Positions 1-61,428 of a DNA stretch of 64,000 nt are shown one piece after another. A model generated the notes under the pieces. The model saw only the letters and a program-made list of their open reading frames with translations, was not told where the DNA came from and searched no databases. The stretch lies in the NCBI GenBank assembly GCA_050084515.1, contig CM114271.1, positions 3,782,001-3,846,000 on the forward strand. The letters run 5' to 3'. This DNA comes from Blasia pusilla. Taxonomy: Eukaryota. A program made the translations under genes and the position numbers. Numbering within the stretch: the stretch's first letter is position 1; each line of letters starts with the position of its first letter.

Positions 1-92
1 ATAGCACAGGGTGGACGAGGCTCGATATGCCGATGTAGATTGAGGAGTGGAGTTTTAGGCCGGGTGTGCCGGTTTTACTACTCTTTATTTTT
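1..92 (+). repeat. 3' part of the 5' terminal repeat (block B) of copy 1
   Basis: Matches 9032-9123 with 3 mismatches, then diverges into internal sequence without a following A block. Confidence 0.9.
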
Positions 93-1393
93 ACATGAGA
101 AAGATGTCAGGGGGCTGGTGGGAATTCGTTGTTTGCTGGTAGGCAAGCGAGTTGCCTTGGTCGGGAGCCCTTGGAGACGTGTGTGTGACGTTGTGTGTCA
201 TTTTTTCTGTTCGGAAGGCCGTGGGCGGAAGCGTTGTCCGTTTTTCTCAGATTTTGCTGGTGCGGATTGATGGGGGATAGCAGCCGAGTGTAGCGTGTGG
301 TGGGGCGTCGCGTGTACGCAAGTAAGGGTGTCGAGAGAGAAGGAAAGGGCAGGTTTGGGTCTTGCAGCCGCCGGGGGGCTGTCAAGTAAAGACGGCTAGG
401 TTAGGTTGCGAAGTTTAGGGTTAGGGCACGGACGGCAGGGCGCGGACAGCAGGGCGCGGACGGCGGACGGCAAGGGCGCGGACGCCGCGGGCCTCCCCCC
501 CCCCGCATTTAGGGCCCAAGGGCCGCATAGGGCAGCGGGCATAGTCGGTCGGACAGTTGTCGCATACGTGGTTGGCAGGACAGACGAGGTTAGTCGGGCG
601 AACGTGAGTGGAGATTTTCCAGACATGAGTGGGAGCCGACCAGGGTGAGTCACGTTACATACCGCGCGTGGGGATAGACAGAGAGGTTTGCACGACATGA
701 TGTTTTGGGGCGCGACAGGGTTGCGAGAGTTTACGATGGAGGGGCAGTGTGCATGATGCCGACGGGTTGTCCGCATCTGTTGACGGGAGGATCGACGTGT
801 TGGTCGAGGGGAGTGTTATGTGGCGGAGATTGTCATATCATGTGGAGGAGTGCATATTGACGGTGCAGCAGGTTGGAGGGCGTGATCAGGTTATCCATTC
901 GAGTCCCTTTTCCCGCACTTGTCGTGTATGATTGAGAGTGCTGGGTATCGGGTAGTAGCTGGTGCTAGATGGGTGCAGTGATGGTGACGAGTGTAGATTC
1001 TTTTCATGTGTAGCATGTTGGTGGATATACGGCGGTTGCCGAGTAGGGGTCGCGTTTATGACCCGAGAGTGTGTCGCTAGGTTAGGTGAGTCAGTTGGGA
1101 GGCTCATGGTGAGCCCGAGTGTTGAGCGTGCGTGAGGCCGGGTATGTCATCATGGGATTGATGTTAGCATAGGTGAGCTAGTGAGGCGTGTGGGAGACTC
1201 TCGGTGAGTCTGAGTGCTTGAGCGGGTGAGACAGGGTTTGTCATCACGACGTTCTTCCAGGGTTCGGAAGAACGGGGTAGTGCGAGCAGTGGTAGTGGTG
1301 TGACACGGAGTGGAGTGAGATACTGAGGGGTTACCACTGAGGAGCTCCCTCGACATCCATCTCGGATGGATCGTCATCATCGGACCGGGTCCG

Positions 1394-2480
1394 GTGACGA
1401 GATCACCGGCGAGAGATAGTAGTACTTGGCAGGAGATGGACGACATGGGCCATCGAGGCATGCGTCGTTTCTCGGGTGCAGTGGGCACCATCGACTTAGA
1501 TGATTTCATCCAGGAGTTTGACACATGGTGCGACTTCCAAGAGATACGGACCCCGACACGGTTCAACCCTTTCATGGCATGGAGGGGTTGTTCCAAAGAT
1601 TTGGAGGGTCCTCCGATGGATGACTACATGGAGTTTCGATCACTATATTCAGAGAGATCGATGCCTGGAGGATGTATTGGGCTCGGGGTATGTGTCCACT
1701 AGTGGTCGAGGCATATGATGGGATTGTGAGAGAGAGAGACCCACACCATCAGCCCGGAGACTAGATGGAGAGGAGGGCGGTGACACAAAGCGATGTGGCG
1801 AGACCTCGGTGGTAGGGGGCCACCGGCTTCAGCCCCACAATGGAGTTCTTCCGACGGTTGGGGAAGAGCTACCAGCGTGCACGCACCGACAAGCTGAAGA
1901 GTCTCAGGATTTTCAACGGCGATCGGGTGAGAGTGCGAGAGAGGCCTTCACATGCATGAGGAGGCTGATCATTGCTACGTTTGGAGGATCGAGGCGCGAT
2001 CGACCCAAAGATTGGCACTGGGTTCGGACCGAGAACTACGGAGGAGAGTCCGAGATGCGGTGATGATTCACGCCGAAGCCCACATTGAGGTGGTCTTTGA
2101 GTTGTCCGAGCGTATTGAGCTCAACATGAGTGAGGAGCAGGTAGTGACCGCTGGATTTTCTCGAGAGTCGACGGGTCCATTTAGCGGCGGTGACCCCACA
2201 AAGTGCCCACGAGCACCGATCACACGGAGCGGACGGTGTGCCTAGAGAGGGCGGGTACCGTGAGCCTATGAGGCAACGACCGCACCTACATATGTTGCCC
2301 GGCGAGGACCGATGTGGTCTTGTTGGGCGTGTGGAGGGGCCCATAGGCAGAGAGGCGCCCACAACATGGGAGAGGACCACAGCGCCTCCGATTGCGCGAG
2401 AGCCCAGAGGATGGCCCCACCACAGCACCAGTGTGACCATTGCCACGATATGGTCACACTAGGGATAGATGTTTTGACCT
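1394..2480 (+). pseudogene. gag: gag (capsid-like region plus CCHC zinc knuckle), frameshifted
   Basis: RFSGAVGTIDLDDFIQEFDTWC capsid-like segment. The knuckle CDHC.RYGHTRDRC is reconstructed across a frameshift at about 2430-2475 and has a counterpart (CDYCERYGHTRARC) in copy 2 at about 53514-53555. Confidence 0.7.
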
Positions 2481-3019
2481 TTGCCAAGGGCACGCGTCAG
2501 AGGTAGGCCGAGGGCCTGGGGCGGCCGCCTGGAGGAGGTCGGGGAGTTCTTCTGGGCGTGGTGTAGAGGACCACCACCAGCCAGAGGAGATGGAGCAGAG
2601 CACGAGCCGGCACTTCTCTCACGATCGATCGGTTGGAGCGGAGGATTGCGCCATGCGATGATGCGGCTTAGGAAAACGGAGGCTGCGGCGCTAGTGTGAC
2701 TCGGTCTCTACCTCTTACCCCGACCCGGGTGAGATCTCTCCAATATGGGATTCATGTGTAGTGTAGCCAGGTTGAGGCGATTGCTGATGGTGACTCGGGG
2801 TGCTGCGAGAGGCACCGAGCCATCGAGAGGTGGAGTTGAGATTGACCCACCAGAGGGGACCGATGGGCGGCAGGCCAGGGTTCCACAGTCGTTCACATTG
2901 TCGGAGGCACTACACACACCATCGATGGTGCCTCGACGACCAGCGGTGCCTACAGTTCAGGCACCTACGTCGACGTCACGAGGAGTTGGAGTGAAAACTC
3001 CTATGCCGGCTCGAGTGGA

Positions 3020-3865
3020 GTGAAAACTCCTATGCCGGCTCGAGTGGAGTCAGTGTCGACTATAGTGTTGGAGGTGGCCACTAGAGTGAGTCAGACTCCG
3101 CTATTTTCCGCCTTAGAGTTGGCGACGTTGGGAGTTGGACCAGTGAGGTGTTCGGTTGGCCGCCACGCGTTGTGTGAGCATGGAGAGATGACTGCTTCTT
3201 GTTCAGAGGTAGTTGAGGAGGTGGTGGACTTGCCCTCAGAGCCGGTGCTTGGGACGTTCCCCACAGAGTCATGGCATGCGGCGGCGGCGAAGTTGGTAGA
3301 TATGCCAGCTCGACCGGCCATAGAGCGAGCAATGGTGACACCTGGAGTAGTGTTACTGGATAACCGAGTTGGATTATTTTGCTTGGTTAGTCCGACGGGG
3401 ACAGTATACCACCCGCAGTGCGTCCTACTTGATTCGGGAGCGCAACCCTTGATGTTAGGGAAGGCGGCGTGTTTAGCGTTGGGATTACGGAAGGCCGACA
3501 TCGAGCCTTGTCCCTTCGAGATACAGACCTCGATTGTGTGCGTATCACCCACTCAGTATATGACTCGACATGAGATTGTTGTGAGAGTCCAGCCAGAGCA
3601 TGCGACGGATAGTGCTATGGTGCGCACACGTGCGATTACGACACCGGTGAGTAAATGCGATGTGTTGGTGGGGAGTACAGTGTTATATCCCCTAGGATTC
3701 ATCCTTGACTTCTGGGAGGAGACCGTTGCTTATCGGCCAGGATGGCGGCTAGGTGACGGTCGGATGAGTCAGTTACCTGTGCAGTTTGCGGGACGAGGTG
3801 GTCGATCACGAGGCGAGTCTGTGACCACGTTGGCGGCTTTCACAGGTAGTGTTAGCTGGCCATGA
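3020..3865 (+). pseudogene. pol: pol: retropepsin-like aspartic protease region
   Basis: VLLDSGAQPLML catalytic motif and downstream CDVLVG; homologous VLLDSGVQPVML in copy 2. Confidence 0.85.
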
Positions 3866-4146
3866 GAGTTGTTGGAGGGGAACGCACATGCGGAGGATGT
3901 CCTAGTAGCGGATAGTCCCAGGGAGAGACAGGCCATGGCGGGTGTCTCTTCCCATGTTAGCGATGCCTCTTCACCATTATGGGGTACGACTCGAGAGCTA
4001 CAGAGGAGTGCCGACGACCTCGTGAGGCAGGCGTGGAGTCATGTTTTTATCCCAGAGCAGCGAGAGTCACGTGGCGATCGGGCTCTTGGAGTGGAGACGA
4101 TGACCCCACTAGATACCACACCTGTTGTGTGGCAGTGCCCAGAGGA

Positions 4147-5085
4147 GGGTGTTAGGGTGTTAGATCTCTTTGGAGGGATTAGCACCGGATTGGCGGCCAT
4201 ATTGCAGGCAGGCATACGGGTGCATTAGTACCTTTATGTGGAGAGAGATGAGACCGCACGGCGAGTATCATTACGTCACGTGGCAAGATTGGTCCAGAGG
4301 TATCATGAGTTGTTGTCGGTATCTGCAGTACGGGGATACCAGCATACGCTACCCGCCGACATATCTTTGGTGGGGGCGCAGGATCTGGATAGAGTTGGCA
4401 CCATTCATTTGGTGATTGCTGGATGGCCATGTCAGGGTCATTCATCAGCTGGCCGAGGATTTGGATTGCAGGATCCGAGGTCAGGGATGTTTTGGGAGAT
4501 GCTGCGAGTAGTACGACACTTGCAGCAGAGTCAGATATGTTCTCCAACGTACATTTTGGAGAACCTGCCGTTGTTGGGAGATATTCGTGCACGTGTGATG
4601 ACGAGTGTACATCAGGTGAGGTCCTGGTTGGGACCGGCTGTGTTGTTAGATGCAGCGAGAGTTGGGTCACGTGCCCATCGTCCACAACTATGGTGGACGA
4701 ACCTGATACCATCAGAGGTACTGAGTCGAGCCTACAGTGGAGTCCAGAGAGCACCACATCTCACGGTGGATGCTATTTTGGACTCAGGGCGTCGATCTCA
4801 GGTGGTGACACGCGATGATAGACCACCATTGGCCACGGCCAATAGGGTGGGGGAGTTGAGGGCAGCCTTACCTACGTTGGTGAGCTTCCCAGCATCCCAT
4901 GCCTTTCGTCAAGGAGGACCAGGCATGATTTGGGATGAGGTGACCGGAGTATTGGAGGAGCCTACAGCAGATGAGCGCGAGCGCGCCATGGGGTTCACTA
5001 CCGGTACTACGGCGGTGCCAGGGATGACTGAGGCATCACGGAGACAGGTGTTGGGGCAGGCGATGGACCTCAACTGTCTCACATG
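4147..5085 (+). pseudogene. C5 cytosine DNA methyltransferase domain (DNMT3/DRM-like) within pol; one internal stop at 4226
   Basis: Motif I VLDLFGGI (about 4157-4180), II YVERD, IV IAGWPCQG (PC at 4427-4432), VI ILENL, VIII AHRPQLWWTNL, IX ERERAMGF, X RRQVLGQAM, in canonical non-permuted order and in the same frame as the protease. Confidence 0.92.
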
Positions 5086-5529
5086 GATAGTGAGCCTAGG
5101 TATGGCTGAGCAGAGACGGATGCGAGTGTCATCCATGCCGTCACGTCCACGAGTTGGACCACTGCCTACAGGGTCTGTATAGGCATTGGCTGGGGGCGAG
5201 ACGAGGAGAGATAGGCACCCATGGACTTCCTGGGACGTCGTTCGAGCAGAGAGTGTGAAGGCGGCTAGAGTAGCACATGTTCATTTTTTGGATGTGGAGC
5301 ATGGTGTAGGAGGTCGAGTGGAATGGTCATTATGGAGGTGGCTAGGGTTGCTACATAGCAACCAAAGCCGGAGGTTGCGTCCTCTCCGAGTGAGGTCACG
5401 ATGGAGACTTAGGAGCCTGTGATAGGTCTCAAGTTGATAGGAGGAGAGCGACGGCGAGTTCATAGGTTTCTGAGAGGGCATGTCAGTTGTTTTGCCTTTA
5501 GTATGAGAGACTTGGGTACGCTGAAGGGT

Positions 5530-6830
5530 CCCGGGATACGGATTGAGTTGGCTAGTGATACGCCGATCTTTCGTTGACCCTACAGGTATTCTGATATGGA
5601 ACGAGCCTTGATTCAGAGCAGGAGTCAGGACTTGTGGAGTTATCACATGGGGAGTATGCATCTGCCACAGTCATGCTGGCGAAGAAGGATATGTATGGCA
5701 ATTAGACGGATAGGCGGATGTGTGGAGATTACCGTCCTATCAACCAACAGACGAGGTCAGATCGGTATGCCATGCCTACTCCTGAGGAGATCTTTGATGC
5801 GGTAGGGCATGCAAAGATCTTCAGTACTTCAGATCTCCGTGCTGGCTATCATCAGCTTCCTATCAGGTTGGAGGACAGGGAGAAGACAACATTCTGGGGG
5901 ATAGATCGGTTTGGGAGAGATTGCTTGTATCAGTGGCGGTTCTTACCATTTGGGTTGAAGAACGCGCTTGCGGAGTTTCAGAGAGTGATGGATAGGATTC
6001 TGGCTGGCTTGGATTTTGTACGATGTTACATAGATGATATTCTTATCTTCAGTTCCACGGTTGAGGAGCATGAGCGACACTTGGAGGAGGTGTTTCGGCG
6101 ATTGCAGTTACATGGACTGAAGTTACATCCAGGCAAGTGCAGATTCTTTCAGGAGCAGATTGAGTACTTGGGACACACCATATACCCGAGTGGGTTAGGC
6201 GTTCAGTAGACGAAGGTAGAGGCTATTGCGCAGATTCCACGCCCTACAGATGTGAGTCGAGTCCGAGCATTTCTTGGACTGGCGAACTTCTATCGACGGT
6301 ATGTCAAGGGTTTTAGTGCGATCGCAAAGTCTTTGACCTTGTTGACGAGACTTGATCAGGTGTGGTTGTGGGGAGATGATCAGGAGTGAGCATTTCAGGA
6401 GCTCAAGGACAGGTTGACGTCCTCACCCATTTTACAGAGACCAGTTAGGGGTCGCCCATTCCAGTTACATACGGATTGGAGCATGTTGGGTCTAGGAGTA
6501 GTGCTTACTCAGAGGGATGACGAGGAGAGGGAGTTCGTTGTGGCTTACGCGAGTTGATCGAACAACATTGTAGAGGCAAAGTACAGCTCCTACGAGGGAG
6601 AGTGCTTGGCTGCAGTGTGGGCCGTGGCACATTTTAGGTGCTATTTATTCGGCAACCCTTTCACACTTATCACTGATCATCAGCCGTTGAGGTAGTTGAT
6701 GGAGTCCGACAAGCTTACGGGAAAGCTTGCCAGGTGGGCTCTATTACTACAGGAGTATGAGTTTGAGGTGGTTCATAGGGCAGGTCGGCTGAACCAGGAT
6801 GCGGATGGGTTGAGTCGTAACCCATGTCCG
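5530..6830 (+). pseudogene. pol: pol: reverse transcriptase and RNase H, with stops and frameshifts
   Basis: RMCGDYRPIN, DLRAGYHQL, PFGLKNA, YIDDILIF, KLHPGKC, YLGH; RNase [44 protein letters not shown]. Confidence 0.95.
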
Positions 6831-7169
6831 AGTCAGAGAGACGACATTGGAGCTCGATGGCACGGAGAGAGTGATGAGGAGATGGTGCCGGGTTGGCATG
6901 CATCTGCCTATCTTTGTTGGTTGACTATGGCAGGTCAGCCACAGGTGATGACTCCAGTGGTGGGATTGGATGATGAGTCTTTGGATCCGGAGGTTAGTGA
7001 GGAGGCGACAGGTGGTCGTGATATCCATGACGACGTGGAGGTTGTGGACTTCTTGCGCACCTTTGGCGTCATTGCGAAAGTACTGATGAGTCTTTGGGAG
7101 CGGATCGGATCCTGAGAGAGCCAAGAGGTTCGGTGGGAGGGACTCACATTTTGCGGGTATGGGGAGATG

Positions 7170-8453
7170 GTAGGATACGAGTGGTACCTCATCCTTCCCA
7201 GCGAGCACGTGTAGTGCGACATGCCCATGAGGAGTTGGGACATTTCGGAGTAAAGCGCATTTACGCCTTACTCCAGGTTGAGATCGGTGGCGCGGCATGC
7301 ATCTGGGTACAACGATTTGTGGCAGATGTATGGTATGTGACAGAGTGCGAGCATCCTTCAATGCTCCCACTCGCAGATTACATCCTTTGCCGATTATGGG
7401 TTTAGGTTATCGGTGGAGTTTAGACTTTGCGGGACCTTTGCCATTGTGGGCGTCATCATAGGTGCGTGTTGGTCATGGTGAAGCATTTCTCCAAGTGGAT
7501 AGAGTTGGTGGCACTACCGGACAAAGCGGCGAGGAACGGCTTATGCGTTTCTAGATCGTGTGCTTAGTCACTTTGGTGCACCGGCAGAGGTGTTGACCGA
7601 CAGAGTACCGAGTTCGGGGGAGAGTTTCAGGCCTTGTGTGATCAAAGGCCGATAGATCACCGCACCACGTCGAGGATCATCCTGAGGCGGATGGATTGGC
7701 GGAGAGAGTGGTACAGACGGTGAAGAGAGGATTGCGCAAGTATGGCTTGCAGCGGGGACAGTTGAGGGAGTGGGACCTCTGAGTTGCCATGGTTGGCTAT
7801 GGGTTATCGCTTTAGTCGGCAGGCATCATTGGCGTCATTTTCACCGTACTTTTTGCTCTTTGGGAGAGAGCCGATTTACTGCAGCGATTCGACGTAACAT
7901 GGCGGAGGTGTTAGATCTGGATGATCCGGATGTGTGGGTGCAAGCATGTTCTCAGAGGGCAGAAGTTTTTCGTAGAGTTATGCCTATGGCCTTTGAGAAC
8001 TTAGCTATTGCCCAGCATAGAGATACATTGAGGTCCGCGACCATTCGTGGAGGAGGTTATCATCCAGGGGTTAGGAGGTTTCATCCTGGAGATTACGTGT
8101 ATTTACAGCAAGCGGCACCCACGACGCTAGATGTCACTGCAGGGCGCACTATCCTACGTGTGCGCGAGGTATTACCGACCGGAGTCCTCATGTTGGAGGG
8201 ACGAGATGGTATGGTTTGGAAGGATCATGTGCGCAATTGTGCGCCATGTCATCTTCCGAACGTAGATGGGATGGTGGATCCAAGCTTGGCAGTAGTACCT
8301 GCAGGCTTGAGGTGTATGTTGTGCGGATCTGCGAGGGGTGCAGCCACCATGTTGGTATGTGATGGTTGTTCTCAAGGGTGGCATATGTCATGTCTGACCC
8401 CCCCTCTTGATGTGGTTCCCACGGGACGATGGATGTGTCCAAGATGTGTATAG
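7170..8453 (+). pseudogene. pol: pol: integrase (HHCC plus rve core) with C-terminal PHD finger
   Basis: AHEELGHFG...C.VC, WSLDFAGPL, EHFSKWIELVAL, FGAPAEVLTD, HPEADGLAERVVQTVK; C-terminal CMLC...MLVCDGCSQGWHMSCLTPPL..VPTGRWMCPRC. Confidence 0.9.
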
Positions 8454-8529
8454 GGTAGTAGGTCATGTCAGAGAGATGTGATATTTTCTATCTGGAGTTA
8501 GGGGGATCCAACTGCCAGCTAGGGGGGCG

Positions 8530-9261
8530 GTTGTGTGATCTCCATGTATATGTATGAGTTTATTTTTGTACATGTGTGGATCGACCCGTGTGTGGGGAAG
8601 ATCGATGTTGTGTGGTGTAGATGTGACGAGCGATGTATGTTGTGTAGCGATATGTATGCGCACGACAACTGTCACATCTGAGTAGCCGATAGGCCGAGAT
8701 CTATCGTTTATAGGGCGTAGGAGCCAACGGACTATCTTGAGTGTAACTTTGTCCCACAGTGTCGGATGAGGTTGAGGATAGGTCCATTGTGTCAGGAACG
8801 TTGTTTCTGACGACTTTCATGTTGAGGTCTTTTACATCCGGGTGACTTGTTGACCAGGTCATCTGCCCCTGGTAACCTGTGCGCGCAGGTTACCAAGGGA
8901 AGGGATATTCTTAGGGGAAGAGCCTTTTGGCTCTTTCCAACCTATATAAGAGAGGAACATGTTGGGCCGTTGGAGCACCTCCCTTGTAGGTGTGTGAGCT
9001 AGGAGTAGGGTGCTAGCGTCCGGATTCCTTGATAGCACAAGGTGGACGAGGCTCAATATGCCGATGTAGATTGAGGAGTGGAGTTTTAGGCCGGGTGTGC
9101 CGTTTTTACTACTCTTTATTTTTGTTGTGTGATCTCCATGTATATGTATGAGTTTATTTTTTTACATGTGTGGATCGACCCGTGTGTGGGGAAGATCGAT
9201 GTTGTGTGGTGTAGATGTGACGAGCGATGTATGTTGTGTAGCGATATGTATGCGCACGACA
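8530..9261 (+). repeat. 3' terminal repeat complex of copy 1: A(8530-8667)-ac-B(8670-9123)-A(9124-9261)
   Basis: The two 138-bp A copies differ at 1 position. B starts TGTC and A ends GACA. A purine run AGGGGGG at 8521-8527 precedes A, and a TATA-like CTATATAAG lies at about 8942 in B. Confidence 0.92.
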
Positions 9262-30388: not shown

Positions 30389-31230
30389 GGAAAGTAAATC
30401 GAAGGAAGGATGGAAAGGAGCAGAGACCTGTTAGTCACTGGGACTACATTTTGGGTAACACTGGTTTCTACTGCTGAATATGGAATCAATCACGAAAACT
30501 ATCCACTCGCTCCAACGTCAGTGTGGGCATGTATGCTAGTCCATGACTCACAGAGATGGACAACGTGAAACAGCTACTGCAAGAAAAGGTAGAAAATGTC
30601 ATCTTTGATGGCTGGTCTTTATGCAATCTTGGGCTGCGATGTACCTCGTGTCAGCAGACTTCCAGAACTAACGAATCGCTTGCATTCCCCATATCCAAAC
30701 TTCCTTCCTCCGTATTTGAGACACTGCATTCGTCATCTAAATCCTGAGCTGAAACCAGAACCGAGTGCTACTACGAGAGGGGAGTGTTGTCAGGGTGGAG
30801 TTGCGATGGTACTGTTGTAACTGTTCTTCAGTTCTTCAGTTCTTGGGCAGATTCGATGAAATCCTTGATTTCAACCTCTTACACTCAAGAGGGACTTGTT
30901 GGGATCAGGCAAATCGAGATAGCTTCCATGTCCTGACTCGAATGGGCATTTGAAGTATGAAATGAAAAAGCCTGCCACTTAAAAAACCCACCATCATAAT
31001 CGGTAGGGCTACATGTTAAGCATCGAAGTTTGTCATTATGGTTTATGGTTTATAATAAGTGAACCTTAAAGTGATTATTGGGGCTCGTTGCAATCATCGA
31101 AGTTTCTTGTCGTGCTTCATTATACTTGATCCTTTTCAAAATCGAAGGGGCTAGATGTAATCCTCGAAGTTTGTTGATCCCCTTCATCGTTCTTCATCCT
31201 TCCAAATATCTGGTAGTAATATGAAAACTT

Positions 31231-31612
31231 CAAGGTTTGTTGTGATACTCCATGAAACTTGGACCTTTTAGAAACATTATTATGTTTCCATGTCCTCATT
31301 CGAGAGTCTTTGTCAAGCTTCGTTGTGATACTTCATGAAACTTGAACCTTTTGGAAACCTTGTTATTTTCCATGTCCTCATTCCAGAGTAGTAGTCAAGG
31401 TTTGCTATGGTACTTCATGAAACTTGAACCTTTTAGAAGACTAGTTGTGTTTCCATGTCCTCATTCAAGAGTACTGGTCAAGGTTTCTTGTGATACTTCA
31501 TGAAACTTTCTCCTTATAGAAGACTTATTATTCTTCCATGTGGTCATTCGAGAGTACTGGTCAAGGTTTGTTGTGATACGTCATGAAGTTTCAGCCTTTT
31601 AGAAGACTTGTA
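31231..31612. repeat. Minisatellite, about 83-bp unit, about 4.5 copies
   Basis: Recurrent caaggtttgttgtgatacttcatgaaacttgaaccttttagaa...ttccatgtcctcattcgagagta. Confidence 0.9.
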
Positions 31613-33524
31613 CTAGTCTTCTAAAAGAGATACCCTTCATGTTGTTTTTTTCCCACAGCACCATCAAATCAGATCATAAGTCCACGCATATATTCTTAGG
31701 GCAGTCCCACCAGAACTCAGTATTCTACTTTGGAGATATGAGCTCTATTGTCATGCCCTACTTCTTCCATTCGAGTATGTCCAGCATCTTTGGGCCTTTT
31801 CTGCAGTTACAAAACATTGTACTGCTTCTTGGCAACGCTCAAAGATTTCTGAGGCACAATCCATACTCATGGGTTATTCCAGCTTACCAAGTGTGACAGA
31901 CCAGGAATCTACATGGAATCCTCACCAGAATCATGCAAACTCCAATTTCTTCAGATCTGCTGCTGAAGGAAGCTCCAACGATCATACAATACTGAAGCCA
32001 ACAAAGCTATCTAGCTTCAACCATTCATTCATTCGAGTTCACTCCTTCTGCATTTCAGATCAGAATTCAGCACTAGAATTCTTGTGTAGACAGTGTTGGT
32101 ATCAGTAATATGGTACAACCATATTACTGAAACGTATGAACAGTTAAAGGTTCACTATGTCTGTGGCTGCATATTTGATCTTCATCACTTCATCTGAAGA
32201 GAGATGTTTTTGCCATTCTGCAATTGTGAGTATTCTCCCTCTACCGATTTTTGTATCACCCTATAACTCTAACATGACATGAGAGGACTCAGCAGATTTT
32301 AGGTTAAGTGGGAGGTCTAGAATTCTTGCGCCAACACCAGATTATTGATTTATGAGTGTGAACAAAGAAAGGTTATCTTCGAAAGACACGACTACTCTTC
32401 ATGTAGTCTCTTTCGAACATTGAAACTTTCGAACTATTGCCTGTTTCGAACATTGACGCAGCGATGAAAATCGTGGCTATATCCTTCGATTCCTGAATCG
32501 AGAGACTTGATTTCTGTCTAGAAACACATTCAGCTGATTATTCTCCTCTCCAGACTGCTCTCAGTCCCTTCATGTGGATGGTGAGCACTCCCAATATATG
32601 ACAGAGTCTCCATCTTCTCCCTACTTTCTTCACACCCTCCCTCTGCTCTCATCCTCAATCTCTACGAGCACCGTCCTAACCACGAGGCTATGGCAGCCAC
32701 TACTTAATGGGTAAAGCCCCTATACCATCCTTTGATTCTGGTGTTCGAGCCATAGCAGATCTAGTTCATATGTTTAACAACAATTCCAATCCATGCGAGA
32801 CTCCGAGCTAAACATCAAAATATACCCTAGAACCACACCACTGCCATGTTTCCATTCAGTTTCACCTCAGGAATTGCCATTCAGATTGCAAGCAAGCCAC
32901 CACCATAGCTCACACTCAAAAGTGGATACCTACCTGAAGAGAAATAACTATTGGCTCAGCACCAGTACGCTTGGTCCACACCACATAGGATTGCGCTCAT
33001 CATCCTCCGCCATTAAAACAGTCTTCTACCAGAACTATTGTACAACCCAGTCATGCAGCTACGGATGAAGGAAACTGACAAACAAGGTCCTAAGTCTACA
33101 CTCCAAAACTGAGGCCACGAAATTCTTCTTGAGGTTCCAAAGCTTCGCCAAGCTGCTGAACTGCACCCGAATTCAACATATCGATACCACTCGTACGCTG
33201 CTCCAGAGTTTAGGTGTGAAGGCGAATCGAGTAATCCAGCCCTCTCAAAAGTAGCATAACCACCACCTTCCCACAAACTACTCAAGAATCGTCCTGTCAC
33301 TCGACGAACACACGAAAATCCTCCGCGAAAACACGACTGTACAAAGTTGAACTATCTGCAGAATCGAACCATGTGGGCACGATTCCAACTTCTTTTGAGC
33401 CGTTGAGGAGAACAACTGCCATGGAGTTCAGAAGGTAGCCAGAAAAAATCATCTAGATTATGTAGTCAAGAGTGCTAGAGCGGCCAAGATGACAACGATT
33501 TCGAATGGGAGACAGGCCTGGGAA

Positions 33525-35165: not shown

Positions 35166-38100
35166 TTACCCGTGTGCTCTGCGTTCTTCCTCATGTCGGG
35201 CATGTCTGGCGAGAGTATCCATGAGGAGAGGGGGTGCGTAACGGGCTGTTCCATCGTTCTCCTCACAATCGATGCAGAACGACAGTAGAATGGTATCGAT
35301 GGCCATCTCCACCACCCCAAAGAACATGGAAGCTATAACGTATCCAAAGAGCCAGCAAAACTGCCCACACAAAGGCAAAACAGCCGCTGACAGTGAGTTT
35401 CAGACACACACAAGCACATGATGCATCACATCTTCAGATCCTCAGCTGTTCAGATGAAGCTATAAGCTATGAGAGGTGATCGAAGAAATAAAGACCCTAA
35501 AGAGTACATTCCCCTCACTTCCATAGCTTTCAGTACAAAAAGCTCCGCAGATTCAAGCAAAAGAGAGAAATGGGGAGTAGGCATAGCAACGGGTGACGAT
35601 GACCTACCAGGACAGGAAACAGTGGCGAAGAGATTTTTTTAGATCCTGAATTGTAGACGTGCTGGTCCAGCATGAGGAAGGCGAAAAACGCGCATGCCAG
35701 ACTCACAGAAAGCTTCCCCAAGAACAAAACGATATCTCCAACGATGTTCACAGCTCCTACCCTCAATATGTTGTTGATGATCAACCCAGAAGCCTTTGCG
35801 GCAGCTCCGAAGAACCCTTTACCTTTGATAGCAATCTGCAACAAAGAAAGAAGAAAGCATTCGTGTGACCGCGTAAATGAAACTCAGCTGAGGGCAGAAT
35901 AATATCACACTAGAAGTGCTCATTTTGCACAGAAAGCCAAACGTACAAGATAATCTTGCACCTGTTGAAATGCAATCTTTAGTTCGAAACAAATCGAAAT
36001 CCAGACCATCTAGTCACGAGTAGCAAGAGATTACTAGTTGCATATCCATAGTCGCAAGTGAGAGCGTACCACTATATAAGCGTTTCTGTTGATGAATTTG
36101 ATTGTCCATTCGATACAGCCCAAACAACACTGTGCACAACAGCATAATATCGTGACCAAGCAACCACCAGGAGCCATCTCTGCTGCTTTGATCTTCTTGC
36201 GGATGGCGTCCAGGATGAAACGCACCATCTGAATTACAGCTACCAGAAACGAGCCCACTGCCATAGAACCCAAACTATAACGGACGAGTCGTTTGGCAGA
36301 TGAGAGAACGGGAAAAGTCGGCAGGAGCTGCAATCCAACCAGACCAAATTTGAGAATCCAGGGATATTGGCAAAACATAGATGGTGTGGGTAGCAAATTA
36401 CCTAAGACCTACACGATTCTCCATCTTCCGCTCATCCCAAAATGCCAAGAAAGTCGAAACTACGATTCAGGTCCTCAGCCCACACATACAATAAGCATTG
36501 CAGCAGTATGTTCCTTTTCATGGTTCATTGAGGTATATCAGCTCATTCGATACACTGAGCTGACTGCTGACCAAGTGCATCATGACTAAGATTGCAGTGG
36601 AGCTTACAGATCTGTCACCGCGAACCCAGTAGTAAGACACTACTGCACCAGCGATTATGGTAAGCGAGCATGCGATGATAAACTGAGTTGTCCAGAAGCC
36701 CCCAAATATGTGAAACAAGATAGCCCATACGATGTTTTTGCTGTGGTGAAACTCATATCCACAACAGCCACCACAAGTTACATTTTGTGTTTGGAGGTCA
36801 TAAGCACAGCACCCATTGTTGCATGTATTTTGTGTTATCTCGCCTGCACTGAAGAGGTACAGGAGCACTGCCGTCCAGTAGATGAAAAACATGACCATAA
36901 GAAAAGCTGGGATGATTGGGTAGATCATAAGCGATGGAATCGCTCCGATTGCCTTCGCAGCTACCTGCACATGCAATGATTGACAATTTTGTGACAGTTC
37001 TGTCGCCCACTGACCTTCCCATCTCTGTAAACTAAAGTCTAGCCTTGGACTGGCACAATTCTCTGCATCTCTTTTTGAGCACAAACAAACTTGCTTGCAA
37101 AGAACTCTCAAGCCCATTGTTTTCAGATGCCTGTTTTATTTTGACGCTGTGTTCATTCATATACAGACCCACAGCACTAAATGAACTTTTCTTACATTCA
37201 ACGAGAGGAAGTGATCAGATTAGATCGTAAACTAGAGCTCTTTCGGATGTAGATAGGAAGAGGTTCACTCACCTTGACGACGGCCACCGCAATGAAGACA
37301 CGCTTGATGAGCACCAAGGTGACAAGGACTACTATCACGGCGATGACTGTCATGATAACGGCCACGATCTTCAAGTGATTTTGCATCTGCAAGAGCAACG
37401 ATGGTGATGAGACTCAAAAGGGGAAGTCTAGATTACCATTGGTGCTCGCGAATTTCTTTCTAGTTACTCAATTGACGATCATCTGCAACGCTCTTCAGAA
37501 ACGCTACTCCAACATCCAGACATAGGAATTCGGCTACCCGCTCCACCCCGTTCGATCTGAGTGTCATTCTTGTAACCCACAAAAGGGTGAAGAGTATTGA
37601 CGAAGCTTTAACTGAATTTCCCTTTGCCATACATTGTGTCACTTCGGATCTATGCCATAGTCTTTATGTCTAAGATGTGGTTTATCAACTGACTCACAGA
37701 GTGCGATGTCTCGAGTGCGAGTGAATCGACAGCACCACTACCAATAACAGCGGAAATGGCATTGGTCCCGATCCACCCAGCTGCACAAAACCAGGCAAAC
37801 CTGCACTTCAGTTTCCAGAGAACCCAAACCGCAACAGGCACCCGAACATCCACATACTTATGCCACTCATTGATGGATGCATAAGAACTAATTTCCTGGT
37901 GCACACGAGAGGATTCGTACCTTTCACATAGAAGTAAACAGTTACAGCGATGGTGGCAAAGTTCAGCACAATGATGCTGATCCAGGTGATAACCCCAACG
38001 AAGAGGCGAACAAGGATCAGCCATGTCATGGACAAAATCAAAGGCACAATTCCTCCACATACCACTAGCACGGGCCAGGCATTTCCAAGATCTGCGACAT

Positions 38101-52500: not shown

Positions 52501-55239
52501 TCCTATTACATATTCCTCTTCTCCATAAAAGATTTTTTTCCTTAATTTTCCATTTAATTTTGACCATTCTCTTTTAATTTTTTCAATATTTTTTGTAATT
52601 ATTTTAAAAAAGTTAAAAAATTATGGCCTAATTCATATTTTTATCCTCCATAAAAAAAAAATTTCCTTATTTTCTCATTTATTTTGACTATTCTCTTTTC
52701 ATTTTTTCAATATTTTATATAATTATTTTAAAAATTCTGGCCTACTAAATATTTCTCTTCTCCATATTCTCCCAATCTTACTTCACTTCTCTTCTCAAGT
52801 TTAATTTATAGTTTCGGGGTGTGTCATGTAGATGGCGAGTGTCGATAGATTATTATTGAACATGGAGAGACGACCACTTGGTGTTGTCACAAATACACCA
52901 ATTATGCCACAAATTTCAGGGATCTAAATCAAAGTACCAAAGAATACCTCTCTTATGTAACCACCTTTGTTTTATGCCTTATTTCCATTTCCACAATGAC
53001 ACCTTCCATTCCAATGTTTTCTATGATTATACTTTAAATATGCAATCTCCCCAATTGTTGCACGGTTGTCCTATCCATCAAACCTTACGGATTTGCGTGA
53101 CTTAGGAAGATTGATGCATGCAAAGGCACAACAAAAAAGACGTGCCCATCGCAAGGAAATATTAGCACAACAAACATAAGTTGAAGATGAACCCCTCCCC
53201 GAAACATCTTCAACATAAGTTAATTATTGACAATCATTTACCATGTCCAAATTTACACTACATAATCTCCGCGTTAATTTAATTTTCTTTGTTCTTAAGA
53301 TTCATTTCATGTTCCAGACTTCCCATTCCATCGAATCCTGTCAATGTATGTGATTTCCGAAAGGTTCTATGCAGCAAAACGCAAAAATGAAACCTTGCTA
53401 TTTGTGTTGAGCAGGTGATGGAGCCCATCACCAACGCAAATGCACTCGTCAGGGTCATGGATGCATGCCTCAACCTAGAGGAGGAGATGGTGCTGCACCA
53501 AGAGGTCATTAGTGTGACTATTGTGAGAGGTACGGTCACACACGCGCTAGGTGTTTTAGCTTACACCTTGAGTTACGTCCGAACCGAGGGCCAGAGAGGA
53601 CACCAGAGCAAGTTGCTGGTACGGGTGGGCTAGAGGTCGTGCACCATGTGGTCCTGTTTGGGGACGAGGAGTTGGATTCACCCAAGGGGATGGTGGAGTT
53701 GCTCGTGGAGGAGGTAGAGTCCCACCACCTAGACGCGGTGAGGGAGACGCCAAGCGTGAGGTTGGGATGGCTGCTTAGATATAGCAGCTACAGCAACACA
53801 TTGCCGTTATGGCATTGAGGTTACCCGATGTCGGATCCGTGGCATCAACGTCTTATGGACAAGCCAGAGATATGGAGGGTCCTAGTTGGATGTGCGGGGT
53901 TGCCCAGATGGAGGCCGCCGCAATTATTACACATGGAGCAGCCGCAGAGTTGGATCCACAACGAGGGGAAGCTAGAAAACAGACCAGGCTTCCTCAATCA
54001 TTCACATTGTCTAAGGCGATGATGACTCCATCGATGGGTCCTGATCAGATTTCTTGGAGAGTTGGTGATGTTGTTGGTGTGCAGGCATGGAGGGCAATGA
54101 GAGAAGCGAGTGCGACGACTCCTATTGCTGATGCTCAGGAGGAGCATGTGTCAAGCACGATGGTGGGGGCGGCCATGATGGTGTACCGCCGAGGTCCGCT
54201 GTTTTGTGCTTCCTATGTTATGACGTTAGGAGATATGCCCGCCGAGGTTTTCCGGTTGGCTGCTACGCTAAGTGAGCGTGGAGATGGTACACCTGCATCA
54301 CGCTCAGGGATGATTGCTGAGGAGGTGATGGATCTGCCCTTCGAGCCTATGCTCGGGCTGTCCACGTCAAATTCATGGCAGGCTCCGGCTATTAGGATGG
54401 CGAAGATGCTGGCTAGACCAGCGATAGAGCGTGCCATGGCTTCTCCTAGTGTTGTGTTCTTGGATAATCGGGGAGAGGTCTTCGAGTTGGAGAGTCCAAA
54501 AGGTAGAGTTTTTAGTCCACAGCCTGTCTTGTTGGATTCGGGAGTGCAACCCGTGATGCTGGGGAAAGTGGCATTCAAAGGATTGGGCTTGACGAGAGCC
54601 GATGTGGAGCGTTGTCCATTCCGAATATAGACATCCTTGGGTAGAGCGTACCACAGAGTATATCACCCAACAAGAGGTTGTGGTGAGGATTCGCGTAGGA
54701 CATCCTACATATGAGTCCGTGGTGCACGCCAAGGCGATCGTGAGTGATGCAGAGTCCTACGACGTCTTGGTTGGTGAAGCAGTGTTGTACCCGATGGGTT
54801 TTCCCTGGATTATTGGGAGGAGTCAGTGTCCTACAGACCAGGTTGGCAGTCCCCTCATGGACGAATTTGTTCATTACCCGTTCGATTCACATGTGGAGTG
54901 ATCGAGCGACGGCCAGGAGGGATGGCGACTTTCGAAGCATTTAATAACGCCATCACGTGACCTTCTGATTTGATTGAGGGGCATGTCCATGTAGAGGACA
55001 CCCTTGTGTCTCATACTTCTAGGGAGAGAAGTGTTATGGTAGCCGCATCATTCCGTAAAGGAGAGTTGTCGCTGTGGGGCTCGAGTGAGGAGCTCCTACG
55101 TTTATCTGATGAGCATGTGCAGACGGTGTGGAGTGAGGCGTTTGCACCAAAGTGTGACAAGTGAGAGGAACCCGAGGTAGTCAGAAGTGCTACTATGATC
55201 CCTTTGAACACCACCCTGATTGTATGGTGCATCCTAGAG

Positions 55240-56170
55240 GAGGGTATTTGCGTGTTGGATCTCTTTGGAGGAATCAACACTGGTTTAGTTGTTGTTTTGC
55301 AGCCAAGAGTGCGCGTGCAACAATACCTATACGTTGAGATTGATGATGTTGCAAGGCGCACTTCACTTCACCATGTGGCGTAGTTACGCCTCTACTTTTC
55401 CGACTTGTTTTCTGCCTCCACCATCTAGGGATACTTGAGCTCTCTACCGAGGGACATTTCATTGCTGGGGATGGAGGACTTGGAGGAGGTAGGGACCATA
55501 GATTTGGTCATTGCTGGTTGGTTGTGTGATGGCCAATCGAGTGTTGGACGAGGTAGCGGGTTGGCTGACACTTGATCCATGTTGTTTTGGGAGATGATAT
55601 GGATCTTGCGACACTTGCAGGAACATCAGTCCCATTCTCCAACATACATTCTGGAGAATGTGCCAATTTTGGGCGATTCGAGGTCCCGCGTGGTGACAAG
55701 TGCACATTAGGTGCCTGCATGGATTGGCCCGGAAGTGTTGTTGGATGCAACGAGTGTAGGTTCATGGGCACATCGCCCACGCCTTTGGTGGACCAACTTG
55801 GTGGCACGTGAGGTTTTGCGGAGGGCATATGCGAGAGTGGAGCGCCCCTCCCATTTTTTGGTGGATTCTATTCTGGATCCAGGTTGTCAATCACAGGAAA
55901 TACGACACGATCATTGACCCCCATTGACTATGGTCAAGTGGATAATCATTCCACGAGCAGCCTTTCTCAAATTGGTGAGTTTTCTTGCTTCCTATGCATT
56001 CAAGGAGCCCGAACCAGGCTTAGTTTGGGATGACCAAGTACAACGATTGGTGGAGCCCAATGCCGATGAGTGAGAGCAAGCGATGGGATTCCCCACAGGA
56101 GTGATCGTAGTACCATCACTATCAGAGGCATTAGGACGTCATGTCTTGGGTTAGACGATGGACCTGAACT
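55240..56170 (+). pseudogene. C5 cytosine methyltransferase domain of copy 2, degenerate
   Basis: VLDLFGGI, YVEID, IAGWLCDG (PCQ decayed, Cys kept), ILENV, AHRPRLWWTNL, E*EQAMGF, RHVLG*TMDL; same frame as the downstream RT ORFs. Confidence 0.9.
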
Positions 56171-59100
56171 ACTGGACATGGATTTTCAGCTTAGGAGTAG
56201 TTGAGCCACGTCGTTTGACGATGCGATGGATCACAACTGTTGCGTTGGTGAGCCCCATGCTTATCGAGACTGTTGAGGCACTGGCTGGGGGCGAGACCCG
56301 ACGAGATCGACACACTAGGGGTGATTGGGAGATATACCCTTGGACTTATTAGGATGTTTTGTAGGTATGCCAAGAGATGATAGCAACATCATCGAGCGTG
56401 GTTTTAGGTACTACACGTGGAGGAGATCAAAGTTTGTAGTTGGCTGAAGGAGAGCATGGGTGCTCTATTGTCCAAGGCGGGGTTGCACCATAGCAACCAC
56501 CAACACCAGCGCCGCAGAGTCTTATCGTAGTCACGATGGAGACTTGGGAGCCAGATATGGGCCTTAAGTTGATGGGACGAGAGCGGCGCCAGATAGATCA
56601 ATTTCTGAGGAGTTATATGAATTTTTTTGCATTTAGCATGCATGATTTGGGTACACTAAAGGGTCCCGGCATCCACATTGAGTTGTTGAGCGACACGCCA
56701 ATCTTTTGACGACCCTACAGGTATAGTGACGTGGAGAGGGCTCTGATTGAGAGTAGGAGCCGAGACTTGGTTGGAGGAGGACTAGTGGAGATGTTGCATG
56801 GAGAGTATACATCTGCTACTGTCATGCCCGCCAAGAAGAATATGCATGGCAACTGGACAGATAGGCGGATGTGTGTAGATTATCGACCTATCAATCGACA
56901 CACAAATTCTAATAGGTATGGCATGCCCACCCCTGAGGAGATCTTTGATGCTATTGGGCATGCAAAGGTCTTCAATTCACTAGATCTTTGAGTTGGATAC
57001 CATCAGCTGCCTATCAGATTGGAGGATAGGCAGAAGACAATATTTTGGGGCATCGATCCTCACGGGAAGGATTGGTGGTTCTTACCATTTGGGTTAAAGA
57101 ATGTCCAAGGTGAGTTTCAGAGGGTCATTGATAGGATCTTGGCAGGTCTGGATTTTGCTAGGTGTTATATTGATGAGATCGTAGTCTTTAGCGCCACGAT
57201 TGAGGAGCATGAGTGACATCTAGGGGAGGTGTTTCGACGATTGCAGTTACATGAGTTGAAGCTACATCCACGCAAGTGCAAGTTCTTCTACCTACATATT
57301 GAGTACCTGGGTCATACAATATACCCAAGTGGCCTTAGTGTGCAACACACAAAGGTAGAGGCTATTTCAGGCATTCCACGCCCTACAGATGTGAGTCGAG
57401 TTCGTGCATTCATGGGATTGGCGAACTTCTATTGACGGTATATCAAGGGTTTCAATTTGATTGCAAAGCTGCTAACCTTGCTGACCAAGATGGATCAAGA
57501 GTGGTACTTGGGGAATAAGTAGGAGAGAGCATTTCAGCTCAAGGAAAATTTGACGTTTGCATCCATATTGAGAAGACCAATCAGGGGGCGTCCTTTCCAG
57601 TTGCATACTGATTGGAGCATGTTGGGGTTGGAGCCGTGCTCATCCAACATGACGATGATGGTAGAGAGTTTGTGGTGGCTTATGCTAGTTTCTCAAAAAA
57701 TGCTGGAGAGGCAAAGTATAGCTCGTATGAGGGTGAGTGCTTGGCTGCAGTGTGGGCTGTCGCACATTTCAGGTGTTATCTATTCGGCAACCCCTTTACC
57801 ATCAATACTGATCATCAGCCACTTAAGTGGTTGATGGAGTCCGACAAGCTTACAAGGAAGCTTGCAAGGTGGGCTCTTTTGTTGCAGGACTATGACTTCC
57901 AAGTGGTGCAAAGACATGGGATGCTCAACCAGGATGCACATGATTTGAGTCGTAACCCATGTCTGAATCAGTGAGATGCGACTGGAGCTTGTTCACATAG
58001 TGAGAGTGATGAGGAGTTGGTGCCAAGATGGCATGCGTCAGCCTAGTTGGGCTTGTTGGCTATGGAGAGCCAGATTGCGGAGTCTTCCATGGCGAGGTCT
58101 GATGGAGAGTCCTTAGATCCAGAGATTGGTGAGGAGACAAAAAATGGCCGAGATATTGATGATGATGGAGTAGTCTTGGAGTACCTATGTACTAGCAGTG
58201 TCGCGAGCACAATGGATGCTAGAGAGCGGGATCAGATCCTACAGCAAGCCAAACGGTTATGGTGGGAGGGGACCCATGTGTTGCGAGTTTGGGAGGATGG
58301 TAGAGTATGTATAGTGCCTCATCCTTCATAGAGAACGTGTTTGGTGCAAGGATTTGGGTCATTTTGGAGTGAATTGGACGTACAGCTTGCTCTAGATATA
58401 GTATTAGTGGTGAGGCATGTAGACTGACATTCAACAATTTATTGCCAGGTTTATGGTTTGTGATCGGGTTCAGGCATCGTTCAATGCTTCAACTTCACAG
58501 TTGCATCCACTTCTGATCATAGGTTTAGGTTATAGATGGAGTTTGGATTTTTCATGACCTTTACATTTGATGGAGGGCCATACTCGTTATGTGTTGCTGA
58601 TGGTCGAGCACTTCTTGAAGTGGATAGAGTTGGTTGTATTTCTTGACAAAGCGAGTGAAGGAGTAGCGTATGCCTTCCTAGATCAAATGCTAAGTCATTA
58701 CGTGCACCAGTTGAGGTATTGACAGACCAGGCTACGAAGTTTTGCGGGGAGTTTCAAGCCTTGTGTGATTAGACGCTGATCAACCACCCCACCACTTCGC
58801 GAGATCATCCAAAGGCGGATGGACTAGCGGAGAGGGTTGTGCAGACAGTGAAGAGAGGATTGCGCAAGTATGGCTTGCTGAGAGGTCAACTAGGAGATTG
58901 GGACCTTCAGTTGCCGTGGTTGGTGATGGGATACAGATTCAGCATGCAAGCATCCTTAGCGTCTTTCTCACCATACTTGCTACTTTATGGTCAAGAGCCA
59001 GATTTACCTGTGGCTATTCGTCGAGATATTGGTGAGGTGTTGAACCTTGATGAACCTGATGTATGTATGTGAGCATGTTCTCACAGGGTTGAGTTATTTT

Positions 59101-59382
59101 GGAGAGTGATGCCCATGGCGTTTGAGAACTTGGCGATTGCACAATATCGGGATACGTTGAGGTATGCGACTATTCGGGAAGGTGGTTATCGACCTACTAT
59201 CCGGAGGTTCCATAAGGGAGACTATGTCTACTTGCAGCAGACGGCAAGAGGGCGACTAACAATGGGACCACATGAGCACCCGGAATTTTTGCTCTTAGCG
59301 TCTGAGAGATGTAGGTCATGATAGGTAGGGATAGATGGCTATCTGGAATTAGAGGGACCTAACCATCGACAAGGAGGCAATC

Positions 59383-60167
59383 GGAGATATTTTGGTACTT
59401 CTCGCCTCTATGTTTGGGTGCCATGAGTTAGCATGGGATCGTGCATGTGTATGTGTGTGTTCGATGAGAGCGATGTATGTTGTGTAGCGATGTGTATGCG
59501 CACGACAACTGTCACGTCTTTTAGGATAGATCAGTCAGATCTAGTAGAGCGCCTTTGCAAGTAGTAGAGGACATGCTTAGGAGGTTGAGGATTGCCTATA
59601 GAGGCCCCAGGAAACTTGAGAGAGTAGGTTTCCCTTTCATTTCGGCTCATTTGGAACCATATTGAAAAACTTAATATTTGGGTAAATATCATTTTGGATA
59701 AATGCCATTTTGAATATATGATCAACTTTCTATTTTGGTAAGTGGCCCCTGATCTCCTATATCAAGTCAAGAGCCAATGAGGTGACTTGGGAGCATATGT
59801 TACCATGGAGAGAGCTTGGGGAAGGGGAGGGGTATACCTCAAGGAGGGAGAGCTTGAGAGCTCATTCTCTCTTTGTTGAACCTCTTGGCAGAAGGCATCG
59901 GAGCTATGGTCCCTTGTCTTGTGAGTTTAATCCAAGCCTCTCATTAGGAGAGTGGGTTTGGCTTGACACTGAGAGAGATATATGAGAGAGCGTACATGTG
60001 AGAGCTATGGTGTTGTGAGAGAGATTTGACCTTATTTTAATTGGAGATATTTTGGTACTTCTCGCCTCTATGTTTGGGTGCCATGAGTAAGCATAGGATC
60101 GTGCGTGTTTGTGTGTGTGTTTGGTGACAGCGATTTATCTTGTGTAACGATGTATATGCGCAAGACA
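59383..60167 (+). repeat. 3' terminal repeat complex of copy 2: A(59383-59507)-ac-B(59510-60042)-A(60043-60167)
   Basis: A 125-bp A block is repeated at a 660-bp offset; the junction cgcacgaca-ac-tgtcac is identical to that of copy 1. Confidence 0.92.
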
Positions 60168-60267: not shown

Positions 60268-61428
60268 TTATCAATCAATAGTGCTGGAGGGCGCTTAGTC
60301 CGTGATGCGATGCTCATTATATGGGACGAAGTACCTATGGCTCATCGTCATGTATTTGAGGTTGTGAATCAAACTTTACAAGATATTATGGGAGTTGTTT
60401 CTTATGATCTACCAGAAATATCATTTGGTGGAAAACTTATGGTATTTGGTGGTGATTTTCGTCAAATGTTGCGTGTTATTCATTATGGGGATCGGCCGAA
60501 ATTCACCAAAGCCACCATAAAGAGGTCATCTCTTTGGTCTAATGTAAAGTTCATGAAGTTGAAAATAAACATGCAAGTTCAAAGGTTGGAAGGTCATTTG
60601 CAAGATGAACAACAAGTTTTTGTTGATTAGTTATTGGAATTGGGAGAGGGTTATGTACCTTTGCACCCTCACATGGGAGAATACTTTATACAATTATCAT
60701 CTGAAATTATAACTAATCTTAATAAGATATGTGATCTTATTGATTTGATATGTGGAAATTTTCCTAGCCGATTCCATTACATTGATTTCTTAAGAGATAT
60801 GGCTATTTTGACTCCAAGAAATAAAGATGTTGACAACACAAATATAAACATGATGTCTCGGTTTCTTGGAGAGGTAATCCTTTTTATCCGTACAAATATT
60901 TTTTCTTATGGAAACTTTATATTTGGGAAGTTTTGATACTAATATTACTTTTTCTCACCAATTTATTACATGTTGTTTATAGGAGCACGTTTACCTCAAC
61001 ATCGACTCTATTCCGAATGAGGGGATGAGTCATATCTATCCAACTAAATTTTTGAATATATGCTTGCCTTCTGGACTTCCTCCGCATCGTTTGTGTTTGA
61101 AGATTGGTGCACCAATCATGCTCTTATGAAACATGAATGGATCACATAGACAAGCAAATGGGGAACAAGATTGGCGATTCGTGGATTTATGCAACATTGC
61201 ATCGATACTAAAATTATCACATGTAAGAACATTGGAGATCAAGTTTTTATTTCACATATCCCATTAATTGCATCAAATTCTAATTTTTTATTTCATTTAC
61301 ATAGGTTTCAATTCCCTATTTGACCGACTTTTGCTATGACTATTAATAAATCTCAAGGTCAAACTTTGCAAAAAGTTAGCATTTATTTGTCTAATCATGT
61401 ACTTTCTCATGGTCGATTATGCGTAGCC
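60268..61428 (+). mobile_element. Helitron-type PIF1 helicase remnant with introns
   Basis: LIIWDEVPMAHR, FGGKLMVFGGDFRQ, L.INM.V, AILTPRNKDVD, SGLPPHRLCLKIGAPIML, QFPI*PTFAMTINKSQGQTL, SHG.L.VA; intron-like gt...ag at about 60874-60982. Confidence 0.88.

Follow-up and report, generated by a model that had tools for sequence, protein, structure and literature searches.

A Ty3/Gypsy element of Blasia pusilla with split repeats and an internal att junction, a candidate for integration through a circle-like intermediate

In the textbook account, a retroviral-type integrase acts on a linear cDNA with its att sites at the tips; circles are by-products, and cleavage of their junctions is a disputed side activity. 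The opening of abutted ends across a short spacer by a DDE enzyme is the practice of IS3/IS30/IS21-type elements, but these are bacterial DNA elements without reverse transcription, whereas the element described here is reverse-transcribed. Foamy virus integrase cleaves the 2-LTR junction with a loss of only two bases (PMC1180852), and the published accounts of foamy virus and HIV-1 present a retroviral-type integrase able to cut a CA...TG circle junction (PMC1180852, PMC1905944, PMC4372172). In these accounts the junction arises by ligation of the cDNA tips and serves as a side route, whereas in the present element it is an inherited internal site, apart from the seam where cDNA tips would meet, and its cleavage would be obligatory.

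Split direct repeats of the order A1-B1-A2-B2 are described for PAT, TOC, Kangaroo, Ngaro and VIPER (PMC4157794, PMC6681497). The elements in these descriptions use a tyrosine recombinase, whereas the present one has a DDE integrase, TG/CA att sites and 4-bp target-site duplications (TSDs). Self-priming from a site complementary to the RNA 5' end is described for Tf1-type Ty3/Gypsy elements, including Sushi and the plant chromovirus Tcn1, which is present in mosses and club-mosses (PMC4600332, PMC6317226); here it is indicated by complementarity. Tf1, Sushi and Tcn1 are described with two full LTRs and chromodomains, in contrast to the split repeats, methyltransferase and PHD finger of the present element. 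Pfam scans of the window copy and its relatives gave no chromo match on the integrase, which is followed by the PHD finger instead.

The closest described system is KnitGypsy-Dnmt3 of Klebsormidium nitens (de Mendoza et al. 2018, PMC5890265). It shares the Gypsy domains, a Dnmt3-related methyltransferase within Pol and the order of the repeats, for which the Fig. 4 legend gives the repeat structure of DIRS elements, written there as A-coding-B-A-B. Neither the text nor this legend describes a junction sequence, a spacer, a TSD, priming sites, a short form or a mechanism. A literature search on split repeats combined with a DDE integrase, which left most subscription papers and Repbase outside its range, found nothing beyond this legend; in the literature searched, the layout has been glimpsed once before and the mechanism proposed below is new. 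No Klebsormidium name occurs among 33 matches and the best 120 of 192, most of which carry no species name.

Layout of the element in the window

The window, a 64,000-nucleotide stretch of B. pusilla DNA, carries parts of copies 1, 2 and 3 of the element. Copy 1 spans positions 1–9261, with open reading frames interrupted by stops and frameshifts. One end is absent from each copy, and TSDs are readable in relatives only. In the list below, A and B are the two segments of the repeat.

1–92, plus strand: A1 of copy 1, the final 92 bp of its left repeat, whose start lies beyond the window; 96.7% identical to 9032–9123, the identity ending at 92/9123, with no B after it
93–106, plus strand: position of the self-priming primer-binding site, degenerate in copy 1, where the complementarity is not significant (no better than in shuffles, 219/500)
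1436–2481, plus strand: Gag-like region with Cys/His knuckles, frameshifted (tblastn with P0001)
3047–5305, plus strand: protease (DSG) and C5 cytosine methyltransferase, with in-frame stops (PF00145, E = 7e-8; 56% to P0001)
5368–6842, plus strand: reverse transcriptase and RNase H, broken (PF00078, PF17917, PF17919)
7139–8447, plus strand: retroviral-type integrase (H2C2, DDE core, frameshifted), then a PHD finger at 8313–8447 (PF17921, PF00628)
8517–8529, plus strand: G-tract, polypurine-tract-like, the predicted plus-strand primer, abutting B1; one of two G6 runs in copy 1
8530–8667, plus strand: B1 repeat, ending in GACA; 99.3% identical to 9124–9261
8668–8669, plus strand: 2-bp spacer (ac) of the att junction, from the junction comparison
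8670–9123, plus strand: A2 repeat, starting with TGTCAC, with a TATA-like box at 8943–8949, from the repeat comparison
9124–9261, plus strand: B2 repeat with the right terminus GACA, from the repeat comparison and the GACA motif search
53396–59363, plus strand: internal region of copy 2, which belongs to a different family and has its left end missing (tblastn; 65–73% to copy 1)
59379–60167, plus strand: right end of copy 2, with B1 at 59379–59507, ac at 59508–59509, A2 at 59510–60038 and B2 at 60039–60167
63380–64000, minus strand: copy 3, of the copy-2 family; A leaving the window, then B at 63510–63380, ending in GACA

The domain order is Gag, protease, C5 methyltransferase, reverse transcriptase, RNase H, DDE integrase and PHD finger; the methyltransferase is presumably Dnmt3-like, judging by its motifs. 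The order of protease, reverse transcriptase, RNase H and integrase, together with the DDE integrase and, in relatives, TG...CA termini and a 4-bp TSD, is that of Ty3/Gypsy elements, and four related families have a primer site after the left repeat and a polypurine tract before the right repeat block. The Ty3/Gypsy trait that is absent is a pair of complete LTRs: the left repeat has no B, and the right end reads B-nn-A-B, where nn is the spacer, or B alone. A 40-bp imperfect palindrome lies in A2 at 8863–8902, upstream of the TATA-like box, and the first half of A has hairpins in related families as well.

The segment 8630–8676 had drawn attention as nearly identical in copies 1 and 2 within repeats that have otherwise diverged, and this is borne out. 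It matches 59470–59516 in 45 of 47 bases. Counted outward from the junction in bins of 10 bases, the two copies agree at 9–10 of 10 from −40 to +10 and at 1–6 of 10 elsewhere; blastn aligns 52 bp (96%, E = 5e-17). The sequence GCGCA(C/A)GACA has its 3' ends at 8667, 9261, 59507, 60167 and 63380 (minus), and all three outer termini (9261, 60167 and 63380 minus) do stop exactly at GACA, as first noticed. With one mismatch allowed, the 10-mer by itself gives seven matches against a shuffle mean of 3.3, so the significance of the junction is taken from the 52-bp alignment and not from the short motif. The junction is the B1-nn-A2 boundary of a bryophyte-type Ty3/Gypsy element with the layout A1-ORFs-B1-nn-A2-B2.

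The junction is also transcribed in the copy-2 family. In two stranded RNA runs of the organism that best matches the window sequence, first mates fall mostly on the minus strand, which means sense RNA in the usual library type; reads enter at 8631 with copy-2-type B sequence (67 and 140) and leave at 8679 with copy-2-type A sequence (91). Among the best-supported loose ends and joints of the RNA reads mapped to the window, there is no clear start or poly(A) site.

Beyond the element, the window holds a PIF1-like helicase fragment at 60271–60900 (PF05970, E = 2e-30), directly after copy 2, which is probably a decayed Helitron-type gene and the insertion target of copy 2 or its neighbours. An open reading frame with a PF04515 choline-transporter-like match at 36518–37117 (minus strand) is an exon of a host gene. 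Complex tandem arrays occupy 11545–12703 (units of ~99/222/321 bp and 75 bp) and 31230–31621 (units of 82–83 bp).

Ends, junctions and priming sites of related copies

Related loci number 65 from a metagenome scan plus L066 from a prokaryotic genome scan. All 65 entered the motif search, and the repeat screen was applied to metagenome loci of at least 6 kb. Loci with the same flanks were merged as duplicates before counting (L011/L013, L010/L034, L036/L058, L021/L041 and L026/L032). Relatives named for the methyltransferase region are Marchantia polymorpha (71%), M. paleacea, Riccia, Calypogeia and Sphagnum; among the matches listed, close relatives with a named host come from liverworts and peat mosses, which makes a bryophyte host most likely. 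Viral contigs, searched by DNA patterns and protein alignments, gave no match. L066 represents a distant family and is assembled as a collapsed single unit. This contig, a retrotransposon of plant type with open frames, comes from a cyanobacterial genome bin, where it is likely a stray eukaryotic sequence.

The integrase core (PF00665, rve) is found in all five relatives scanned (L066, L049, L010, L005 and P0017). Relatives with open frames encode rve, H2C2 and PHD domains and also give the protease and methylase Pfam matches; the open rve domains of L066 and L049 contain the D, D and E motifs. The best PDB matches of the integrase are Ty3 Gag-Pol (E = 5e-21) and foamy virus integrase. No tyrosine recombinase occurs among the 16 ORFs of at least 100 residues in L066, the sixteenth of which, pol, was scanned separately. 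The position of the methyltransferase differs between relatives (P0024 and P0026–P0031 versus P0017 and P0021–P0023): it lies in the RNase H/integrase interval in some and in the protease/reverse transcriptase interval in others.

The ends of relatives are uniform. All 16 independent left ends start with TGTCA (TCTCA in one) next to flanks that vary, and none has B before the start; right ends stop at GACA or AACA. A 4-bp TSD is exact in five of the seven copies with both ends and has at most one mismatch in all seven; its sequence varies between copies. Cross-paired flanks, used as a control, gave 0/42 exact 4-bp matches and 4/42 within one mismatch, and lengths of 3, 5, 6 or 7 bp are exact in none of the seven. 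The original prediction had taken a fixed TSD of 4–6 bp as the mark of DDE integration, which the complete related copies display.

It had likewise foreseen a constant 2-bp spacer across family members and held that variation in its length or sequence would speak against an att pair. The length is constant, at 2 bp in nine of nine B1–A2 junctions from five families. The sequence is variable (ac in four, gc in three, gt and tc in one each; n = 9), which is harmless to the model because the spacer corresponds to the two bases lost at integration. These nine remain after four of 13 matches to the two-base junction motif were dropped, one being L010 read in reverse and three lying away from the end of B. 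A looser pattern also flagged L026/L032 and L045 as junction carriers, yet no A2 is present in them. In seven aligned junctions ACGACA-nn-TGTCA is invariant across families; L005, outside this alignment, reads TATCA. Conservation across families extends ~40 bp into B and only 5–8 bp into A, and within these conserved last 40 bp of B the triplet CGA recurs every 16–18 bp. A look-alike of the junction, ACGACA-n5-TGTCA, lies inside B of a second family (L016:149–165 and L062:4556–4572). In view of the termini, the 4-bp TSDs, the fixed spacer and the invariance across families, and as originally proposed, the segment 8630–8676 joins the two att ends of an element with a DDE integrase; the rve and H2C2 domains of the relatives agree with this.

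The positions of the priming sites set this element apart from the textbook arrangement. In four related families, complementarity indicates a self-priming arrangement, in which the site directly after A1 is complementary to a stretch of A ~30 nt past the TATA-like box (29–32 nt in L066, L063 and L064). The exact complements are 16 nt long in L010/L034 (with one insertion), 15 in L049, 12 in L066, 14 in L063 and 14 in L064; among 500 shuffles, those that match the duplex energy number 0 for L010/L034, 0 for L049, 1 for L066, 0 for L063 and 2 for L064. Each family has its own sequence at the site, and the changes between L049 and L066 are paired and compensatory. Several old related copies retain complementarity of only 6–11 nt. 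A tract of six or seven G abuts B1 in window copy 1 and in the L010, L049, L066 and L062/L016 families, being the sole G6 run of the L010 element; copy 2 has only a purine-rich remnant in its place.

Under the standard model of LTR reverse transcription, a cDNA begins with the base that follows the polypurine tract and ends with the one that precedes the primer site. Since the primer site follows A1 and the G-tract precedes B1, the predicted cDNA is B-nn-A-internal-B-nn-A. Its tips are the start of B and the end of A, and the att pair is therefore internal to it, 105–176 bp from the left tip. The integrated full form corresponds to this predicted cDNA with the leading B shifted to the far right, and the A2/B2 seam (9123/9124 in copy 1) coincides with the two predicted tips, that is, with the primer-site edge of A and the G-tract edge of B. 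In copy 1 the seam TTTTT-GTTGTG joins the TTTTT that ends A1 before the primer position to the GTTGTG that starts B1 after the G-tract. It is equally exact in L005, L023 and L016 and one base off in L010. No insert from the primer site or G-tract is found at the seams of L005, L010, L023, L016 and window copies 1–3, the comparison for copies 2 and 3 being made with the A1 edge missing. In one DNA contig, position 101 is joined to 8530 through six other bases, giving A, nine bases of the primer position and then B; this single contig, which was given no weight, is either a seam that kept part of the primer site or the result of a deletion.

A proposed circle-like intermediate and its alternatives

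The best explanation, with a probability of about 0.7, is a Ty3/Gypsy element whose att sites have moved inside the reverse-transcription repeat. The RNA would start in A1, ~30 nt past the TATA box, and prime itself in the manner of Tf1 at the site after A1; plus-strand synthesis from the G-tract would complete the linear cDNA B-nn-A-internal-B-nn-A. Ligation by the host, or an end-to-end jump of the reverse transcriptase, would probably connect its tips, the end of A and the start of B, to form a circle or circle-like intermediate, in which the integrase would open CA-nn-TG with a 2-nt stagger. Nicking after CA on each strand of one junction would produce two processed ends together, and their insertion would create the 4-bp target duplication. 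A cut beside the leading A would give A1-internal-B1-nn-A2-B2, the sole form able to replicate again. Joining of the tips and opening of the circle at CA-nn-TG would thus account for the observed full structure in one step. Such a single 2-bp staggered cut in a circular-type intermediate was one of two options originally considered, and it fits the positions of the priming sites.

The right ends of the main related family occur in two forms: eight independent copies are short (G-tract, B, flank, with no A2) and four are full. Short copies with both ends and a TSD are L011, L020, L045 and L027, and a second family contains a short copy as well (L062); L031 was excluded from the count, an internal deletion having removed its G-tract. 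Where they can be aligned, short and full copies look similar in age, with nearest-neighbour distances of 0.055–0.095 for five short and 0.055–0.074 for four full copies; the three other short copies are unalignable. In L027, L045 and L026, the last 900 bases before the end of B cannot be aligned to other copies, which suggests a subfamily with a longer region between the PHD finger and the G-tract. The short form A-internal-B would be the product of cutting a one-repeat circle or of pairing two junctions. The related loci are short-read assemblies of old copies, and the short forms could also be due to B1/B2 recombination or assembly collapse. Within one old-family copy, B1 and B2 show 7–8 differences in 114 positions and are no closer to each other than to other copies, and regeneration of B2 from B1 is visible only between families.

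A symmetric closed circle with two repeats has two equal junctions and should therefore yield the mirror form A-B-nn-A-internal-B too. This form is found in none of the 16 left ends, an outcome with a chance of 0.01 if it made up a quarter of copies. Hence either the intermediate is asymmetric, or mirror forms must have been lost through A–A recombination or assembly collapse. Reverse transcriptases are capable of end-to-end jumping, and a jump from the A tip to the B tip could expose the leading junction only; mirror forms, for their part, might be reduced to the short form by way of the two A copies that they carry nearly in tandem.

The missing mirror form, and the excess of short over full forms (8 to 4), would also follow if no circle were made, with the integrase nicking linear B-nn-A...B-nn-A cDNA at internal CA sites in a Mu-like fashion with later trimming of the flanks. 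The product would mostly be the short form, and the full form would stem from occasional ligation or recombination of two cDNAs or tips. This is unlikely, for the full form is the only template for a next round and is found with a clean seam in at least four families, which speaks for a regular step; moreover, cleavage at the internal junction would still be needed. It is less probable again that the junction templates both unprocessed tips of an ordinary linear cDNA (nn-A...B-nn), with extra template jumps and ordinary 2-nt processing, the second of the original options. The termini and 2-nt spacer are compatible with such processing, and no circle has been observed; however, primers would be required at the junction, whereas the G-tract precedes B1 and the self-priming site follows A1, neither of them at nn, so that B starts at one tip and A ends at the other, and the seam sits exactly on the edges of the G-tract and primer site. 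L049 and L066, in which B-nn-A runs straight into the primer site, were considered as evidence for real circles and set aside, the 127-base terminal overlap of L066 being typical of a collapsed assembly.

Two further readings have very little probability. In one, largely refuted, the locus is an ordinary LTR element with A-B as its LTR, a local duplication of the U5 end and a decayed 5' LTR, the junction being a relic. A2-B2 by itself does resemble a TG...CA LTR, but B is absent from all left repeats examined, and the same priming site follows most of them; the layout is shared by families (L049 and L066) whose ORF1 is only 32–33% identical to the Marchantia protein, and the spacer is constant in length in 9/9 junctions. 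In the other, a tyrosine recombinase acting in trans integrates the circle and the DDE domain is a passenger, as the A1-B1-A2-B2 order, described as typical of PAT, Ngaro and VIPER (PMC4157794, PMC6681497), might lead one to expect. Against this stand the 4-bp TSDs of varied sequence, the TG/CA termini, the open rve domain with its D, D and E motifs in L066 and L049, and the absence of a recombinase from the other L066 ORFs.

Meaning for the element family

The anatomy of the element makes internal junction cleavage very likely. Several distant families have an att pair internal to the cDNA, and integration is, by this anatomy, impossible without internal cleavage, and the form that can replicate is impossible without joining of the cDNA tips. 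The element would thus be a natural and testable case of integration by the circle route with a Ty3-type integrase. At slightly better than even odds, it belongs to a widespread green-plant Ty3/Gypsy lineage in which circle integration is obligatory, with att sites inherited in the transcript, programmed joining of tips, and an integrase that treats a 2-bp junction as an IS transposase would. This integrase may dock at the CGA repeats conserved on the B side, and one can speculate that the element's own methyltransferase marks which junctions, chromosomal or in new cDNA, may be cut.

On this interpretation, split direct repeats would be able to arise with DDE chemistry and not just with tyrosine recombinases. 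Finders that require two full LTRs will miss or mis-annotate a high-copy class of bryophyte elements.
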